Of a stretch of DNA of 64,000 nt, positions 20,906 to 31,503 are shown piece by piece. Made by a program: the position numbers and the translations under genes. The notes below the pieces were generated by a model. That model had not been told where the DNA came from and did not search any database. It saw nothing but the letters and a program-made list of their open reading frames with translations. The stretch is taken from contig CAWKHF010000004.1 in assembly GCA_963849325.1 (NCBI GenBank), positions 288,001 through 352,000 of the forward strand, given 5' to 3'. Source of the DNA: an uncultured Planctomycetota bacterium (GTDB lineage Bacteria; Planctomycetota; Planctomycetia; Gemmatales; Gemmataceae). Each line of letters opens with the position of its first letter. Position 1 is the stretch's first letter.

Positions 20906-22761
20906 ATGGATGTGCGGCGGTGCGGGGTGATGGGGCTGTCGGACGGGTCGGTTCTCTGGCGAGTGTGGGCGTCGCGCGTCGGGCGAGTGGACCTGGTGCT
21001 CCTCGACGGTGCGCAGCGCCGCACTTATCCGATGCAGGCGGAAGAGCATGGCTTCTTTCATTGCAGCTTGCCGGACGTGCGCGAGGGACAGCGCTACGCC
21101 TATCGGCTGAACAATGGGCCAGAGCGTCCTGACCCTCGTTCGTTGTGGCAGCCGGAGGGCGTTCACAACCCGTCGGCCGTCGTCCGTCCCGAGCGCTTCG
21201 CCTGGACCGACCACGGTTGGAAGGGCGTGCCGCGCGAAGACCTGGTGTTCTACGAGCTGCACGTCGGCACCTTCACTGCGGAGGGCACCTTCGCGTCCGT
21301 CATCCCGCGTTTACCTCAGTTGCGTGAACTGGGCGTGACGGCCGTGGAACTGATGCCGGTCGCGCAGTTTCCCGGCAGCCGCAATTGGGGCTACGATGGC
21401 GTCCATCTGTACGCGGCGCAGAACAGCTATGGCGGACCCTACGGTCTGCAACGGCTGGTGGACGCTTGCCACGCGGCCGGGCTGGCGGTCTTCCTCGACG
21501 TGGTGTACAACCATCTCGGGCCGGAGGGCAACTATCTCGCCGAGTTCGGAACGTACTTCACCGAACGCTATCACACCTCCTGGGGCTCCGCCCTCAACCT
21601 CGATGGACCCGGCTCCGACCCCGTGCGCGACTTCCTCCTCGATAACGTCCGTCTCTGGATCGAAGATTTTCACTTCGACGGCCTGCGCCTGGACGCCGTC
21701 CACGCCATTTTCGATTCGCGTCCGCGCCACATCCTCCGCGAGATCAAGGAGGTCGCGGACGCCGCGGCGCGTCCAGGACAACGCATTCACATCATCGCGG
21801 AGAGCCTGGTGAACGACGTGCGCATGGTGCGGGCGCCCGAGGGCGGCGGCCACGGTCTCGACGCCGAATGGAACGAGGATTTTCACCACGCGCTGCACGC
21901 TTACCTCAGCGGCGAGCGGCACGGCAAATATGGCGACTTCGGCGCCACCTCATGCTTGTCGCGCGTGCTGGAGCACACCTTCCACCTCAACGGGATTTAC
22001 AGCGTCCACCGCGGCCGGCGCTGGGCGCCCCCGACGAGGGGCTGCCGGGCGATCGCTTCGTCATCGGTATCCAGAACCACGACCACGTCGGCAACCGGCC
22101 GCGCGGCGACCGGCTGGCGGCGCTGGTTGGCCCGGCGCAGCAGCGCCTGTCCGCCGCCCTGATGCTGCTGTCGCCGTACCTGCCGCTGTTGTTCATGGGC
22201 GAGGAGTACGGCGAGACGAACCCCTTTCCCTTCTTCTGCTCGTTCCACAACGGCCCGTTGATCGAGAATGTCCGCCGCGGACGCCGGCGCGATTACGGCT
22301 TCGCGGCGGGGGCGGAGATGGCCGACCCGCAGGCCGAAGCGACGTTCGCCGCCGCGCGCTTGAGCTGGTCGTGGCCGGAGAATTCGCTTCGGGCCGGACT
22401 GCGTCGTCTGTACCACGATTTGCTGGCGGCGCGACGGCGTTGGCCGGCCCTGCGCGACTTCACGCACCGCAGCGTTCGCCTACTGCCGGACGAGAACGCG
22501 GCGGCCGTCCTGCATCTGGTGCGCGGCATCGGCGGCGCGGCGGCGGAGCTTCACGCCTACTTCAACTTGACGGAACAGCCCCAGCCGTTGCCGAATGCGA
22601 TGGGTGAGGAGAGGAGTTTGTTATTCAGCTCGGAGGCGGAGCGCTATCACGGCAGCCGGACGAACGCGATGGTCCCGAAGCAGCTGAAACCTTATGAATG
22701 TGTCGCGCTTGGGCCGGCCGCGTGGGGGATGCCGATTGTCGAAGAACAACATCTCGTTTAG
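20906..22761 (+). CDS. treZ: Malto-oligosyltrehalose trehalohydrolase, GH13 (frameshift near 22025)
   Basis: [70 protein letters not shown]. Confidence 0.93.
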
Positions 22762-22823
22762 CCGCGACGCGCAGCAGAGCGCGGGAGCCTCCCGCGCTCC
22801 GCTGCGCGTCGCGGCTAAACGAG
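22753..22823. repeat. Palindromic REP-like element (copy 2 of the 11567 family)
   Basis: CTCGTTTAGCCGCGACGCGCAGCAGAGCGCGGGAG...CTCCCGCGCTCCGCTGCGCGTCGCGGCTAAACGAG. Confidence 0.9.
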
Positions 22824-24182: not shown

Positions 24183-26639
24183 TCACTCCTCCGGAATACG
24201 TCAGGTCTACCGTATGTCAGGCCCGTGTTGATTCTATCGACTCGCCGTCCCGGCTCACGCGGCACCGGCGGCTTAGGCTTTTCCTCATCGGGAATCCAGG
24301 CGGACTCCGCGACGATCTCCACCATCAGCTTACGGACATTGTAGCGATTGTCGGATACGAAGGACCGCCGCAGGTCCGACGAGCTTCGTGCAGGTCCGTA
24401 GGCACGGATCGGCTGCTTGACCAGGTAGTGGAACAGCTGCTCGACAAAGGCGTCGTGCGTCTCCTCGCTGTCGGCCAGGAACGCGGCCAGATCGCGGACG
24501 CCGGTGAACTTCCTCATCTTCGCCGCTGCGCGTCTGGTAGATGCCCGTGGCGTCGATGGGCCGCTCTTTTTCCTGGTCGCGGTAGCGGCCGATGGCGTCG
24601 AAGTGCTCCAGCGTGAAGCCGAGCGGGTTAATCATGCCGTGGCACGTCTGACACGCCTGCGGCCGCGTTTGCAAGCTCGACGCGCTCGCGCGTGGTCAGC
24701 CGTGGGTGCAGGTCCGGCGGCAACGGGGTGAAGGCCTCCGGCGGCGGCTGGAGCGTCCGGCCCAGGACGCTGCGCGACAGGAAGACGCCGCGATGGATCG
24801 GCGAACTGGTCGCCGTGTAGGCGAAGGTCGCCATCAGGTAGGGGTGCGTAAGCACGCCGGCACGCTCGCCGGCTTTCGCCGCGACCTTTCTGGAACGGCG
24901 CATCGGGCGGCAGATCGCCGCCGTAGAATCTGGCCAGCCGGCCGTTGAGATACAGGGAATCCGCGAGCAGCAGTTGGCGGAAGTCCGATGCCTCGCTCCA
25001 GAGCACGTCCTCCAGGAACAACTCCAGCGAGGTGCGCAGGTCCGAGGCGACCGCCTGAGTCGAAGCCGGGGATAGCTGTGCGGAGTCCTTGGACAGGTCG
25101 GGGACCTGATCGACCTTGCAGCCACTGCAGGAAGAACTCGCGGAGCTTGGCCCGGGTCCGCAGGTCGGCGACCATGCGCTCGGCCTGGTGCAGCCACCTG
25201 CTCGCGGGTGGCACAGCTCGGCCGCTCGCCGCCGCTTGCAGAAGCTCGGCGATCGGGCAGCGAATCCCACAGTCCGAAGGAGAGTCCGCGACGCCACGTC
25301 GTAAGCGTCTGGCCCGCCGCCAATCTCGCGGTAGAGGAAACGCGGCGACTTGAGGACGAGCAGCACAACGCGCTTGACGGCCGTTTCCAGATCGCGGGCG
25401 GCTTCGAATCTGGTGATCGACGTAGAGGCGCTTCTGCTCGTCGCGTGAGCGGCCGGCGAAACGCCCGTCTCGGCGAAGCGTACGACAGAACTCGCGGAGA
25501 CGCGCCTTGCGATCCGGCGGCATCGTCCGCGCACGCCGGCCAACTCCGCCAGGCGGGCGACGACGTAGTCCGCAACCTCGATGGCCGCATCGGTCGTGGC
25601 CTGTTCCCACGCCTTGGAGATCGACGTGCCGCGCTCGTAGCCGACGCTGCGGTCGTCCGGCGGAAACGGCGTGGCGACGACGAACGCAACGGGAGAGGCA
25701 GTTCGGCGTCAGGTTTCGCTGCGGGATCACCTCCGCCGTCCGCTGCGGCGGCTTCCACGCCAGCGCGATCGACGCCTTGACTTGCGGGCGGCTTGCCCTT
25801 CTTGTTCTTCGAGTCGTCCACGCCCTGCTTGGCCTTGGAGAACTCCAGCCGCAGCGGATAGACGCGCCCGCCCAGCAGGAAGATCGAGGCGCGATACTCG
25901 GTATCGTTGCCCGACTTCACCCAGGCGTCGATCAGCGGCCGTTTGCGTGTCGTTGACCCACAGCCGGGCGGCGTGCTCGGTGCGGACGATGAATTCGTAA
26001 CTCGCCGGTGTCCGGGGCCAGGACCGAGCCCGTCCAGCGGATCGAGAATTGATTGGCGTCGAACTTCTTGGGGTCCGGGCCGGACGTCGCCGAAGTCGAA
26101 GCGGACCTCGGGATCGACGCGCTCCAGGACGCGGTCGTTGCCGCGGAAGCGCCGGGACTTGAAATACTCGCCGCGCAGGCCGCGTTGCTGGTCCCAGTGG
26201 CTGGGCGTGCGGAAGCTGCCGATCAGGTCGGCGACGGCGTTGCCGATACTGGCGGACGGTGAGGCGCGACAGCTCGATGCGCGGCGGCTTGTTGCGGGCC
26301 TGCGCGGTCTTGGAGTAGAAGGCATCGTAGATGTAGGCGGCGACTTTCTGGGCGTCTTCGCCGCTGCATTTGTCGTCGGTGTCCTTGGGCATGGTCCGGG
26401 CGATGAGGCGGGTGAGCTGGGAAACGGAGCGATCCCCGGCCAGCGGACGCGGGTAATCATCAATCGGTGCCTTCTCCCGACGCTCCATGACACGAGGCGC
26501 ATTGCTGCTTGTAAATCTGTTCTCCGCTACGACCTTCCGCGGCGAGGACGCGGGGGGCCAGCATGCTCAGAGAGCACAGCAGGGCCATCCAGGGTAGGTG
26601 GCGGAGAGGGGACACGGTTGGCGGATTCGTGTGGATCAT
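24183..26639 (-). CDS. Cytochrome c / PA14 / DUF1592-DUF1588 family protein, heavily frameshifted
   Basis: Pieces across frames: signal peptide + IYKQQCASCHG, GLRGEYF (PA14), LSFGLWDSLPD, RAGVLTHPYL, SSPIHRGVF, CQTCHGMINPLGFTLEHFDAIGR. The usual DUF1552 partner follows. 3' end approximate. Confidence 0.82.
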
Positions 26640-26997
26640 GGAGACCGATTCGGGTAGGCCGCTACGAAATCAGGAGGTCGGAAGGCAGGTCAACACTCAC
26701 CGAGGCGCGTCGTCCGCGAACTGGAGGGAAAAATGTCCGGGATGCGGCGCCGAGTGCTGATAAATAGTTTGAAGGCTCGGGGGACGAATGTCAAGGGGAG
26801 AGACGGAAAAGGTCCATTCCTCCCATCCCGTTGTTGCATCGACTGTCTGTTGCCGAAGAGAGACGAAGTTGGTAGGTGCCGCCAGCCGAGCGGCACGGCG
26901 GAACGATACAGCTATCCGTAACCGGCTCACGCGGAGCATGGCGTCGAAGCACGATACACCATCATTCACGTGGTCGGTCTGCTTGTATGTTCCATTT

Positions 26998-27160
26998 CAC
27001 TCCCGATTTCTTGTCGGGAGTATCCTCGACAGGGGAGTCGCGAGGAGGTCTTTCGGTCTGCTGAGGTACGACCTCTTGCTGCAGATTGACCCCTCCGCGT
27101 CGGACCCAGCGCTGGTTACATCTTGAGGCACTGACCTCTGATCACAAGCTTCCGCTCACG
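26998..27160 (+). ncRNA. Predicted IS110 bridge RNA
   Basis: 5' hairpin ACTCCCGA/TCGGGAGT. Target loop with guides TCGGTCTGCT (27053-27062) and GCTGCAG (27078-27084) around hairpin GAGGT/ACCTC. Donor loop with guides GTTACATCT (27115-27123) and ACAAG (27144-27148) around GAGG/CCTC. All four guides match the reconstructed target and donor. RNA ends approximate. Confidence 0.85.
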
Positions 27161-27233
27161 CCGAGCTACGCCGGAGGAGCCTCGCGGCTACGGCCCCATC
27201 GTCTCCCTCTTCACTCCACATTCCGAGGTTCCC

Positions 27234-29042
27234 ATGCTACCACAACACGCTCCCGCTCCGCAATCGCCGCGACGCATCGGCGTCGGCATCGACACCTCCC
27301 GCTACGGCCATTACGCCGTCTTCCTCACGCGACGACCTCCAGCCCGCCGCCGACGAACTCTCCTTCCCCGAGTCCGCCGCCGGCTACGCCCTCTTCCGCC
27401 AACGCCTCGCAAGCGCATCGTCCAGCGCTACGGCGCCGTGCACTTCGTCGTCCGTCTCGACGTGGCCGGACCCGTATGCCGACAACCTGCTCCACTTCCT
27501 GCACCAACTCGGCCACGCCGCCAGCCGACGCCCGCCAACGCCGCCCGCCGTTGGCCCTCACCCTCTCCTGCGGCGATCCGCAACGCAACAAGAACTACCG
27601 CGCCGCCCTCTTCGGCAGCCAGAAGTCCGATCCCGTCGAGGCCCGCGCCGCCGCACGCTTCGCCCTCACCGAGCGAGCCACGCAGTGACAAGCCATTGTC
27701 CCTGCGAACTCCGCATCCTCCGCCAGGTCGCCGGCCGACTCCAGGCCGTCGTCCGCCAACGCACCCGCCTCCTCAACCAGTTCCATCATCTGCTGGCCTT
27801 GACCTTCCCCGAACTGGCCCTGCTCACCAAGGACCTCGCCGCCGGCTGGGTCCTCGAACTGGTCCACCGCTACCCACCGCCGCCGCGCCTGGCCCAGGCC
27901 ACGACCCGGCCGACCTGGCCGCCATCCCCTATCTGCCCGATGACCATGGCGACGCCGCTGCTCGCAACACGCCCAGCACCTCCATCGCCTCGCTGGACGG
28001 CGCGGCCGTCGAGGAGCTGGTGCGCGACCAGGTCCGCCAACTCCGCGACAGTCGGCGCGCGGCAAAAACGCCTGGAATACCTGCTGGTTTCCGCCTATCA
28101 CGCCCTGCCCCAGACCAACCACCTCGACACCATCCCCGGCATCGGCGCCGTCACGGCCGCCGTGCTGACCGCCTTCATCGTCGACATCGATCGCTTCGCC
28201 ACGCCGGGCAAGCTGGTCGCTTATTTCGGCGTCCTGCCCATCGAGGCGTCCAGCGGCGTGGACCGCGACGGCCAGGCCGCGTTCGCCGCGGCGTTGGGTC
28301 ATGAGCCGGCGCGGCAACGACCTGGTGCGTCGCTATCTGTGGATGGCGGCCTTGAGCGCCATCCGCTTCAACCCGGCGGTGCGGGCGTTGTACGCCCGTG
28401 TCGTGGCCAAGCATCCCCAGCACAAGGCGGTCGCCGTCGGCCACGCCATGCGCAAGCTGTTGCACCTGGTCTTCGCCATCTGCAAGAGCGGCCGGCCGTT
28501 CGACCCCGACCACTATCCCTGGCAGACGCCGGCTCACGTCGACGGAGAGTGACAATGACATGTCAGTGGATGCACCGAAGCCAGTGACAAGACCGTGTCA
28601 GTCGAAAGCCAGGCCGCGGGCCACAAGCCGGAAGCTGAGCCGGCTGCGGACAGTGGTCACCGCGGCCTGTGCCGACAGCGTAGCCGAGACGGCCGCGGTC
28701 GGCGAGAGCAACGCCGTCGATTTCGCCCACGTCAAGAGGCAACTGCCGCTGGCCCAGGTGCTCGATCAACTGGGTCTGTCGGCGCGCCTGCGCGGCAGCG
28801 GTCCGCAGCGCCGCGGTGCCTGTCCGCTGCATCGCGGCGATGGCCGCGGCCGGACGTTCAGCGTCAACCTGGAGGCCAACGTCTTCCAGTGCTTCGACAA
28901 GACGTGCGGTCAGAAGGGCGACGTGATCGACCTGTGGGCGGCGTTGCATGGCTTGTCGCTGCGGGAGGCGGCGTTGGACCTGGTGCGGACGTTTGGGCTG
29001 GAGCCTGCGCCACGCACCGGAACAGAGAAGAGGAACGGTTAA
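27234..29042 (+). CDS. IS110 recombinase/transposase with apparent C-terminal CHC2 zinc-finger domain (multiple frameshifts)
   Basis: RIGVGIDTSRYGH, KSDPVEA, LDTIPGIG, FATPGKLVAYFGVLPIEASSG, GNDLVRRYLWMAA, HAMRKLLHLVFAI; then CPLH...FSVN...FQCFDKTCGQKGDVIDL. Confidence 0.88.
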
Positions 29043-29204
29043 GGAACGGTTGACCGCGTCGGTGGAGAGAATCCGCCCTTGGGTCGGGGCCGTCCGCATG
29101 TGCGCAGACAGGACAGAGGAAACCGTTCTTACCGGCCGTCATCACGGGGACGGGGCTTGACATTCATCGTTACATCTGCAGCGGATTGTTCGGCGCTACC
29201 CCCT

Positions 29205-29684
29205 TCAGAAAACAAGAGGCTTACCGACCCCCAAGGAACACTCGACAAGCGCCGCCATCTGAGCGGCAAACTCACGGACCAACCCTGCCATCCCCTGCTG
29301 GACGCACGACATCGCTTGTAGCGCTCCCACCTCGGACGGCAAACTTTTCACCTCTTCGACGGCGAGGAAGTCTCCTGCATGAGTGCCATTGTACAGCACC
29401 TTGGAGAGCAGCAGCGGGAACGTCTCGGCCTGCCGCTCCAACTCCGCTCGCAGGGCGGCGACCAGCGCGATGTTGCCGATGCGGTGGTGCAGCAACACGC
29501 CCAGCTCGTGCTCGCAGGCGCGCTCGAGTTGCCATCGGTCAAAGGCGAGCTGGACCTCAAGGTCGTCGCTGCCGCAGAGCAGGCTCCCATCGGCCGAGAC
29601 GGACAGGTTACAGCCGGGCGGCGGTGGTTCTCGCAAGCGTCCCCGCTCGAAGCAGTCGCAGTACACAACCGCGTCCAACCCCAT
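29205..29684 (-). CDS. Hypothetical protein carried as a putative integron gene cassette
   Basis: 159-aa ORF MGLDAVVYCDCFERG...KPLVF. Preceded closely by GTTCGGC (29710-29704) and an RBS-like GGAG; followed immediately by the attC-like site. Confidence 0.7.
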   Translation of the reverse strand: MGLDAVVYCDCFERGRLREPPPPGCNLSVSADGSLLCGSDDLEVQLAFDRWQLERACEHELGVLLHHRIGNIALVAALRAELERQAETFPLLLSKVLYNGTHAGDFLAVEEVKSLPSEVGALQAMSCVQQGMAGLVREFAAQMAALVECSLGVGKPLVF

Positions 29685-29715
29685 CTCTGCTTCGCTCCGC
29701 CTCGCCGAACAGTGA

Positions 29716-31474
29716 TTAGTCTGAGGCGGGGCGTCTCGCGGCCTCATTCGTGGTGGTCCCTCGTGGACCCCGTTCGGAAGTTTGCCCTTCCTCACGCCAC
29801 GTTGCGCCTCCGCCGGCCTCCCACGGTTGTCCCACGAACTCCTCTATTCTGAAGGCTCCCATGTCCCGGCACAAGCACCAAACCGCCTCGTCCGCCCCCA
29901 GGCAACCCGCCACGCCCGTGGCACCGCAACGCCGCCGTCACACGCCCACTCCCGCCGACGACGGCTACCACGAATCCCTGCCCATTCAGCACGGCCACGC
30001 GGCCGGCATCGACGTGGGCTCACGCACGCACGGGGTCGCTGCCCCCGCAGCAGACGGCACCCTGGACGTGGCCTGCTTCGACACCTACACCGAGGGACTA
30101 CGCGCCCTGGCCGCCTGGCTCCATGCCCACGCGGTCACCACCGTGGCCCTGGAGGCCACCGGCATTTACGGCGATCCCCTCTTCGATCTGCTCCCAAGCC
30201 AGGGCTTTGACGTCATCCATGTCAACCCCGCCTACACCGCCCAACTCCAGGGACGGCCCAAGACCGACAAGCTCGACTGCCAGTGGATCCAACGCCTGCA
30301 CGCCCACGGCCTGCTGCCCGCCTCCTTTCGGCCCGCCGCCGATGTCGCCGTACTCCGCGTCTACCTCCGTCAGCGGGCCGAACTCGTCCGCGCCGGTGCC
30401 CGACACATCCAGCACATGCAGAAGGCGTTGGAGTTAATGAACGTCAAGCTGACCGAGGTGGTCAGCGACGTGACGAGCTGGACCGGCCTGAAGATCATCC
30501 AGGCCATCCTGGACGGTCAACGCGACCCGCTGACGCTGGCGCGACTGCGGAACAAGCACTGCAAGAACAGCATCGATACCTTCGCGCGTGCCCTGCAGGG
30601 CAGTTGGCGTGACGAACACGTGCTGACGTTGCGGCAGGCGTTAGCATCGTGGCAGCACTATCAGGCTCAGCAACGGGAGTTGGAGGAAGCGATCGCCCGC
30701 CACCTCCATCGGATGAAAAAGACGACCGCGCTGCCGCCGCTGCTGCCCAAGCCGCGACGGCGGAGCCGCGCGGCCAACGAACCACGCTTCGACGTGCGAA
30801 CCGCCCTGTACTACGTGACCGGCGTGGACTTGACCGAGTTGGACGGGATCGCCGACGTGACGGCCTTGGTGGTCGTCAGCGAGATCGGCCTGGACATGAG
30901 CCGTTTCCCCTCCGCGAAGCACTTCTGCGCCTGGTTGGGGTTGTGCCCGCGGGTGAAGAAATCCGGAGGTCGGGTCTTGTCGAGTCGGACGCGCAAGGGC
31001 AAGGGCGCCGCGGCGCGGGCCTTGTGTCTGGCGGCGCGGTCGTTGTGGCGCAGTCCAACGGCGTTGGGTGCTTTGCTGCGGCGGTGGAAGGCCCGCTTGG
31101 GGGCGCCTGCGGCGATAACCGCGGTAGCGCACCGAGCTGGCTCGGCTGCTGTATCAAACCTTGAAGACGGGGGCGTTGCCGGCCCGCGAGACGGCGGCGG
31201 CGTATGCGGCCCGCCAGCGGGAGCAAGCGGTGGCAACGTTGCGGAAGAAGGCGTTGCGTCTGGGTCTGCGCGTGGTAGCGACGAGTGAAATCGTGGAGAG
31301 CGTAGCGTCGCCGCCATGAACGATAGCGGGTGCGGCATGGCCCGAGGTTCGCCCAGGGAGACGAGCAAACAAGGCCCGATCACAGCAAGCGACAGCGAGG
31401 GAGACCGCTTCGGTTCACGGCGGAGCGTCCTTGAGTGCGCACAGCAGTCAAAGATAGAATAAGTCTTCTGAAGA
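29716..31474 (+). mobile_element. Second IS110-family element (different subgroup); boundaries inferred
   Basis: Transposase inside, structured left non-coding end, possible duplicated GA core at 29714-29715 and 31473-31474. Confidence 0.6.
29861..31319 (+). CDS. IS110-family transposase (frameshift near 31135)
   Basis: AAGIDVG, VALEATGIY, KTDKLDCQWI (DEDD tetrad), SEIGLDMSRFPSAKHFCAWLGLCP..KKSGG, AITAVAH; tail LARLLYQTL...LRKKA in the next frame. Confidence 0.92.
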
Positions 31475-31503
31475 AGCTCCTCGGAAGGCCGCGCAGATGA
31501 GAC

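Follow-up and report, generated by a model that had tools for sequence, protein, structure and literature searches.

A primase-type zinc ribbon predicted to be fused to the bridge recombinase of an IS110-group insertion sequence family in Gemmataceae

Does the DnaG-like zinc ribbon encoded directly downstream of an IS110-type recombinase gene in an uncultured soil planctomycete belong to the recombinase itself, or is it the product of a separate small gene? The locus lies within a 64,000-nucleotide (nt) stretch of contig CAWKHF010000004.1 from a member of the Gemmataceae (positions 288,001 to 352,000; the whole stretch is hereafter the window, and features in it are given on the + strand). Comparison with related loci identifies window positions ~26984–29175 as one copy of a 2.2-kilobase (kb) insertion sequence (IS) of the IS110 group. 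The original prediction, made from the letters of the window, had proposed that the recombinase carries an extra CHC2 zinc finger of primase type, as a fused domain or as a second IS gene, with insertions and deletions (indels) scrambling the reading. Both the IS110 C-terminus and the CHC2 stretch that it had quoted were present where it had placed them, and the recombinase gene was indeed split over three frames, starting at 27234, 27685 and 28301. The last of these open reading frames (ORFs), 28301–28552, encodes the IS110 C-terminus (..HAMRKLLHLVFAICKSGRPFDPDHYPWQTPAHVDGE), matches Pfam Transposase_20 (expectation value, E, 1.4e-5) and is closed by TGA at 28550–28552. Eight bases past this stop, ATG at 28560 opens a frame of 160 codons that ends with TAA at 29040–29042. 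Comparison of homologues indicates that the fusion is real at the level of the family, where the intact gene is a single frame of ~596 codons comprising the recombinase core, a linker of ~60 residues and a C-terminal ribbon.

The ORF at 28560–29042 (160 codons plus stop) matched PF01807, Zn_ribbon_DnaG (CHC2), over residues 57–148, corresponding to 28728–29003; at 36.3 bits (cut-off 24.9) and E 5e-9, the match is much too strong to be fortuitous. Its putative zinc ligands are C88 (28821–28823), H91 (28830–28832), C111 (28890–28892) and C116 (28905–28907). They were kept in 58/58, 57/58, 58/58 and 58/58 sequences, respectively, of a 58-member family alignment, and all four align by sequence with those of 1d0q and 2au3; a two-residue insertion makes the second knuckle C-x4-C (CFDKTC) instead of C-x2-C. 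Ahead of the first Cys lies a conserved, basic segment (QRRG.CP.H). Modelled alone, the ribbon had a predicted local distance difference test score (pLDDT) of 81 and matched 1d0q (template-modelling (TM) score 0.74, root-mean-square deviation 3.0, E 5.7e-6) and 2au3 (E 2e-5), no other Protein Data Bank chain being found at E ≤ 0.001. The domain type that had been predicted, a DnaG-type CHC2 ribbon, was thus borne out by profile, ligands and fold. DNAG_N and Toprim had no match in protein P0001 or in the window ORF, and TIGR01391 scored 33 bits (cut-off 283.6), over the ribbon only. Identification of the fusion protein as a DNA primase was rejected, as it has neither an RNA-polymerase core nor a Toprim domain.

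A paralogue on contig C7 of the same genome, with 89% DNA identity to window 27249–29183, contains a single open frame of 608 codons made up of IS110 core, linker and zinc ribbon. Homologues of 596 amino acids begin with MLPQHAPAPQSPRRIGVGIDTSRYGH, identical to the window frame at 27234, and homologues read ..PAH(V/I)..(D/N)N.. through the position of the window TGA. When the core alone (residues 10–440) was used as query, PF01807 was present in 115 of the 120 best matches, and three of the other five were of fused length. The C-terminal 129 residues, searched against 5.8 billion proteins, matched 1,127 of them at E ≤ 1e-3; with few exceptions, the 120 listed were proteins of ~580–620 amino acids with PF01548, PF02371 and PF01807, named only 'transposase'. 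Three clusters of the ESM Atlas (133, 263 and 72 members) carried PF01807 in 89–93% of their members. Homologues therefore lack a stop at the equivalent of 28550–28552 and the linkage of ribbon to recombinase is conserved, the two points on which the original prediction had expected the matter to turn. The fusion that it had inferred stands for the family, on the 608-codon paralogue frame and the 115 of 120 core relatives, whereas its alternative of a second IS gene has no support there and holds only for the window letters as assembled, which are probably erroneous. A search for the architecture across Planctomycetota, also suggested at that stage, found the ribbon in 43 of the 267 genomes of the host's order (42 of 251 in the host's family, none of 15 in a sister family) and in 31 of its 96 genera. 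A single genome had as many as 13 matches, and the open frames were ~470–650 amino acids long.

Substitution patterns indicate that the ribbon is under purifying selection. The ratio of non-synonymous to synonymous substitution rates was 0.08–0.34 in the ribbon over 15 locus pairs and 0.11–1.9 in the last 28 linker codons. Mean conservation was 0.85 in both core and ribbon and 0.64 in the linker, whose coding region (28553–28727) is predicted to be disordered. The linker nevertheless contains a nearly invariant motif, (S)QAAGHKP..PA..VVTAACA, at residues ~457–476 of the paralogue protein P0002 (window ~28595–28680, frame-broken), in which G460, P467, A468, V472 and A474 are invariant. A looser form, (A/V)GHK...VVT(A/T)A, was found in distant IS110 subfamilies (L038, L039, L041 and L042); it was faint in L044 and absent from the ribbon-bearing rve transposases described below. 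The motif may be a docking peptide.

The core (27234–28549) is frame-broken in the window and is read as an IS110 recombinase with RuvC-like, coiled-coil and Tnp parts, the last with the catalytic serine. PF02371 matched two of the window frames (E 2.1e-12 and 1.4e-5). PF01548 was undetected by Pfam scan in the window's own broken frames, and is recorded for the paralogue protein P0002 and more than 110 relatives and was also found in the subfamily members scanned. The family profile aligns KSDPVEA with KTDTVDA of IS621, the last D being replaced by E. It also pairs the IS621 serine with the second S of ASSG, a residue conserved to at least 90% across 58 sequences. An AlphaFold2 model of a 599-residue form, built from the 58-sequence alignment (mean pLDDT 71), shows three parts: a folded core (13–428), a linker whose pLDDT stays below 50 (429–488) and a C-terminal domain, also folded, with pLDDT ~80–87 (~490–590). 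The ten best Foldseek matches of the family model were all chains of IS621 (8wt9, 8wt6) and ISCro4 (9t56), with TM 0.66–0.72 and E ~1e-14 (best: TM 0.70, E 7.5e-15). Both known chains end where the family core ends, in agreement with the claim that the ribbon is foreign to them. We conclude that the core is, by predicted fold and by motifs, a bridge recombinase.

The frame breaks of the window copy were read against the paralogue on contig C7. A tblastn search with intact homologues had returned one gapped single-frame alignment, uninformative on frames, and was replaced by projection on the paralogue register. Over 27329–29100 the window copy shows 19 insertions of one base, one insertion of two bases and the loss of 2 bases; the core stretch (27234–28549) accounts for 16 single extra bases and 2 missing ones, and the linker stretch has two extra bases at 28577 and one at 28651. 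The TGA at 28550–28552, between core and linker, is in frame because of an extra base at 28543. When the paralogue register was followed, the window copy had no stop in 607 codons and was identical at 524 of 608 positions. The neighbouring gene, which is unrelated and single-copy, had ~24 single extra bases at 24519–26239 against 2 single missing bases, with a same-genus orthologue as reference, and rpoB of the assembly (G000:C1:334967–338611) is split over several frames. Across window 24519–29100 there is about one extra single base per 70–75 nt relative to orthologues and paralogues, and many of these make or sit in CG contexts. Because rpoB is split, the neighbouring gene carries the same insertions and no stop is left in the paralogue register, we consider that the frame breaks and the TGA are probably single-base insertion errors of the assembly and not decay. 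Any frameshift or 'pseudogene' call in the window is suspect, and the apparent two-gene layout, as a probable product of such errors, is a caution.

The contrary explanation is that the ribbon of the window truly is a separate small gene (28560–29042) that follows a truncated or decayed recombinase, the element being a dead relic with a pseudogene. Several observations do weigh in this direction or otherwise against a three-part gene broken by assembly errors. The letters as assembled permit a two-gene reading, since the core lies in three frames and the stop is followed by an ATG that has a GGAG-like stretch ~10 nt before it. Indels are denser in the IS (~10 per kb) than over 3.7 kb of the neighbouring gene (~6.5 per kb, reaching ~14 per kb only in its worst stretch) and far denser than in rpoB; because of this higher density, some real decay of the window copy is conceivable, though unlikely. 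No public sequencing run was found to contain the window copy (the best share of words was 0.11, in soil metagenomes), so that the errors are inferred and not seen. At the level of the family, two of the 120 best core relatives (440 and 454 amino acids) lack the ribbon, which may be dispensable, and outside one family the ribbon is rare: in a phylum-wide sample of 400 other genomes, 2 had it. P0001 scored 123.7 bits with NCBIfam NF033542, below its cut-off of 140, and a subfamily member scored 139.6; the family is therefore a divergent IS110 branch. Finally, the C7 paralogue has no left end (homology begins at 27249) and for this reason is probably immobile despite its open frame.

The excess of single-base insertions, however, runs throughout the adjacent unrelated gene, no nonsense codon remains once the register is followed, and the indels are nearly all +1. 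This is a better fit to consensus-calling error than to natural decay, in which deletions usually prevail. A separate gene in a dead relic is, in our judgement, improbable, and the combination of a three-part architecture with frame breaks that are artefacts of assembly is strongly favoured. Exactly where the left end of the C7 paralogue would be expected lies another IS110-type gene of 332–369 amino acids (L002 3806–4915, - strand, G000:C7), which suggests that an insertion or rearrangement removed that end. Other remnants in the genome are a solo right end on contig C6, and a diverged left-end piece and a ribbon fragment on contig C10.

Is the ribbon within the mobile element? The bounds of the IS were set at 26984–29175 from the CT dinucleotides at the junctions, the aligned loci and an uninterrupted look-alike site. 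On the left, the alignments of 10 related loci in other genomes begin at ~26968–26981 of the window (one at 26897); on the right, 7 related loci that reach the right end, together with the C7 paralogue, stop at ~29183–29215. The ribbon falls inside these limits, as had been predicted. The related loci came from Gemmataceae, Gemmatales, Tepidisphaerales, 'Planctomycetaceae', other Planctomycetota and one 'Alcaligenaceae' bin. From these alignments the layout is a non-coding left end of ~250 nt (26984–27233) that resembles a bridge RNA, one long gene, a non-coding right end of ~133 nt (29043–29175) and a CT core at each junction. The right end closes with ..CTTGACATTCATCGTTACAT and is kept in 8 loci and in the solo right end on contig C6. 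The junctions read CGGTCTG-CT-TGTATG on the left and TTACAT-CT-GCAGCG on the right. CGGTCTG (26975–26981) is the left half of the target, flanking DNA and not part of the IS, and is followed by the core CT at 26982–26983; the second CT (29176–29177) and the right half of the target (GCAGCGGATTGTTCGGCG) together occupy 29176–29195, as judged by comparison with look-alike sites. Of the 10 related loci compared with the window, 8 have the CGGTCTG heptamer, or a near match to it, ahead of the element. The uninterrupted look-alike site in the same genome (L052), which also has the left half, reads ..GGCCGGTCTG-CT-GAAGCAAATGGTTCGGC (also written ..GGCCGGTCTGCTGAAGCAAATGGTTCGGC).

Over 11 loci the left end was more conserved than the coding region, and its RNAalifold consensus contained 54 pairs, 10 of them with compensatory changes. 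The RNA contains CGGTCTGCTGAGG, in the orientation of the target's left half plus core. From the right-end junction it contains, as assigned by eye, GGTTACATCT in the same sense and CTGCAGAT in antisense. In 9 of 11 loci the RNA and the junction have, by eye, the same core letters (CT or GT); at L010 and L016, GT replaces CT both at the left junction and at the matching place of the left-end RNA. At L015 the flank is GAGCCGCT and the RNA GAGCCGCTGA, the RNA stretch co-varying with the flank. No Rfam family matched window 26500–31500 at E ≤ 1. The left end is a candidate bridge RNA, its loops being assigned by eye. The core would recombine DNA under RNA guidance, as IS621 does.

When folded, the empty look-alike site forms a hairpin of ~100 nt (z −3.6 and −4.3 for the two strands). 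The insertion point lies in the 3' arm of the target hairpin, whose outer stem is closed by ..GGTTCGGC, in the right half of the target. The look-alikes are imperfect palindromes of ~100 nt with outer arms (C/T)CGAAC...GTTCGG and an inner stem CAGCAGCCGG.../...CCGGTCTGCTG. Examples are at G000:C5:860343–860443 (L052 24–124), at G000:C2:757065–757167 (L053 26–128) and, on the - strand, on G000:C12 at offset ~1471774 in reverse-complement coordinates. Left flanks similar to these sites were also seen in other genomes (L012, L014, L017 and L018). At L013, ~2227–2247, the element's left flank ends ..GCATCTGCAGCCT, resembling the right-end junction of the same IS, and may represent a tandem or junction-like arrangement.

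The layout of the look-alikes recalls attC or repetitive extragenic palindromic (REP) sites; few sites were seen in the genome, and none in an array. The attC sites of integrons are imperfect palindromes of the form R''-L''...L'-R' with RYYYAAC and GTTRRRY boxes, and form cassette arrays beside the integrase. By eye, the target boxes (T/C)CGAAC...GTTCGG each depart from this consensus at one position. An attC or REP array in the window was considered and rejected: five CCGAAC...GTTCGG pairs were found, which is chance level, and they form no array. A loose pattern for the target site gave 1,386 matches across the genome, mostly by chance, and only the few sites recognised by eye were used, without a count. 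A perfect palindromic repeat of ~70 nt at 22753–22823 (..TTTAGCCGCGACGCGCAGCAGAGCGCGGGAGCCTCCCGCGCTC..GCGGCTAAA) is REP-like, with dozens of copies on both strands in this and same-genus genomes; it was rejected as a target of the IS, since it belongs to a different repeat family.

Where else does this ribbon occur? A HMMER search with the ribbon over 1.84 billion representative sequences gave 2,727 proteins at E ≤ 1e-3. Among the best 150 of these, all 28 proteins of at least 300 amino acids were scanned with Pfam: 22 had an IS110 domain, 2 had a zinc finger and Toprim, 3 had the ribbon only and 1 was a chimera. (A crude motif sorting of the same 150 matches left 33 unclassified and was not used.) The two zinc finger and Toprim proteins, P0245 and P0268, are primase-like, with an N-terminal ribbon, and were the closest found outside transposases (42–47% identity). 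The ribbon of the host's own DnaG is a separate, distant sequence, 29% identical to that of the window. Transposases of the rve/DDE type (HTH_21, rve, rve_3) with a C-terminal CHC2 ribbon were found as frames of 470–493 codons in three other Gemmataceae genomes (L035, G607:C1; L036, G438:C10; L037, G414:C4), one of which, complete in a single contig, had ten such matches. The best NCBIfam matches of these transposases were IS3 and IS481, both under the cut-offs. Two representative proteins with rve_3 and the ribbon (P0213 and P0192) are consistent with this picture.

The rve ribbons are 44% identical to the window ribbon (pairwise E 2e-24). In a tree of 47 ribbons, rooted on the Toprim and N-terminal forms, they grouped with one IS110-linked ribbon (L043) with support 0.99, nested inside the IS110 radiation; the domain is short and the deeper branches are weak. 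We conclude from these comparisons that the ribbon module has been taken up by two unrelated classes of transposase.

What might the ribbon contribute? As a tethered auxiliary module, it would bind either a replisome partner or nucleic acid, the likeliest form of the latter being single-stranded or hairpin DNA. The original prediction had suggested binding of single-stranded DNA or hairpins, or coupling to replication; two circumstantial points bear on this, namely a target in the arm of a hairpin-forming palindrome of ~100 nt and the presence of the module on an unrelated DDE transposase. Because that DDE (rve) transposase carries a 44%-identical ribbon, a job confined to the bridge RNA or to one element's ends is unlikely. 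The long left-end RNA (~250 nt, more elaborate than a minimal two-loop RNA) and the restriction of the conserved linker motif to IS110 fusions would both suit a ribbon that binds the element's own bridge RNA or aids its loading. We know of no guide RNA for rve/DDE transposases, however, and the nesting of their ribbons among those of IS110 likewise argues against this idea, to which we give very little credence.

A simpler possibility is that the ribbon is a plain additional domain for DNA binding or for stabilising the synapsis, with non-specific or double-strand affinity for donor or target and no link to replication or single strands. Zinc fingers add DNA affinity in many transposases. The flexible tether and independent fold, the basic conserved segment before the first Cys and the presence of the module on two transposase classes that both need to hold DNA are consistent with such a role. 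It is less easily reconciled with the fold, which is specifically that of the primase zinc-binding domain, a domain that acts on a single-stranded template, or with the nearest non-transposase relatives being the small primase-like proteins P0245 and P0268; on balance, plain DNA binding seems rather unlikely.

A link to replication is the most attractive proposal because the zinc-binding domain of primase reads template DNA in single-stranded form and works in trans, on the polymerase domain of an adjacent primase, and because IS3-type and IS110 elements both have circular intermediates. Through binding by the ribbon, transposition might be steered or timed relative to DNA replication, the ribbon recognising single-stranded or hairpin DNA at forks or recruiting the host primase. 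We put forward a replication link or targeting of single-stranded DNA as a tentative function. The more general proposal, that a portable primase-type ribbon is a shared accessory of IS110 and IS3/IS481-like DDE transposases in Gemmataceae and ties transposition to the replisome, is possible but doubtful. The ribbon would then recognise single-stranded DNA or hairpins at the fork; alternatively, it could replace the zinc-binding domain of DnaG and recruit the polymerase domain of the host primase in trans, so as to prime replication for the formation or resolution of the circular intermediate. Whatever weight is left by replication, plain DNA binding and RNA binding falls to regulation or oligomerisation.

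A second, unrelated IS110-family gene lies 550 nt downstream, at 29750–31288 (+); it is open over 512 codons, has no zinc ribbon and scored 226.8 bits on NF033542.

Searches of the open literature found no description of an IS110 plus CHC2 ribbon architecture; supplementary files, which could list such proteins, lay outside these searches. The literature on IS110 and Planctomycetes held nothing relevant by title, papers that mention both bridge recombinases and zinc fingers were reviews as judged by title and abstract, and in the one paper on CHC2 and transposases that was checked, CHC2 is a methylation motif. The family is thus a conserved, widespread and apparently undescribed IS110 variant; its three-domain architecture is already visible in precomputed Pfam annotations, and the sequences themselves are not new. 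It represents a large natural clade of bridge recombinases in which a third, independently folded domain persists under purifying selection, in contrast to the minimal single-protein, two-domain picture given in the passages on the family in Durrant et al. (2024; PMC11208160). Such a clade offers a natural experiment on how cells steer or regulate bridge recombinases, and the tethered module, which may bind nucleic acid or a partner, could be exploited as a handle in engineering. That the ribbon recurs on DDE transposases is a testable lead on the coupling of transposition to host replication, and the family is of interest to both fields, that of bridge recombinases and that of transposition–replication coupling.

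Compared with known systems, the family shares with IS621 and ISCro4 (8wt6/8wt9, 9t56) the predicted fold of RuvC-like, coiled-coil and Tnp core (TM 0.70), the aligned acidic motif and catalytic serine, a putative non-coding RNA with predicted secondary structure, encoded in the left end ahead of the gene, a CT core at both junctions and a target that is a repeat or palindrome. It differs from them in a core of ~430 rather than ~326 amino acids, in a fourth acidic residue that is E rather than D, and in ~170 extra C-terminal residues of linker and ribbon, the known chains ending at the equivalent of residue ~422–427. It also falls below the cut-off of the IS110 NCBIfam model. The same passages of Durrant et al. 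(2024; PMC11208160) describe IS110 proteins as having 300–460 amino acids and two domains, and make no mention of a zinc or primase domain. In the family described here, a fixed insertion point in a hairpin arm, and palindrome ends like CCGAAC...GTTCGG, recall the palindrome-targeting members of IS110/IS1111, such as those at REP sites and the IS1111-attC elements. To our knowledge, no zinc ribbon has been reported for these.

The likeness to the zinc-binding domain of DnaG (1d0q, 2au3, PF01807) lies in a zinc-ribbon fold followed by helices and in the aligned C-x2-H...C...C ligands. The ribbon is, however, C-terminal on a recombinase here and N-terminal on a primase in DnaG; an RNA-polymerase or Toprim domain is absent, and the second knuckle is C-x4-C instead of C-x2-C. 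The zf-CHC2 plus Toprim proteins P0245 and P0268 keep the ordinary primase order, with an N-terminal ribbon followed by Toprim. The rve (IS3/IS481-like) fusions at L035, L036 and L037 have an unrelated catalytic domain and a C-x2-C knuckle (CFKC), and lack the QAAGHKP..VVTAA motif, but they carry a ribbon of the same subfamily, likewise at the C-terminus after a low-complexity spacer and likewise in multiple copies.

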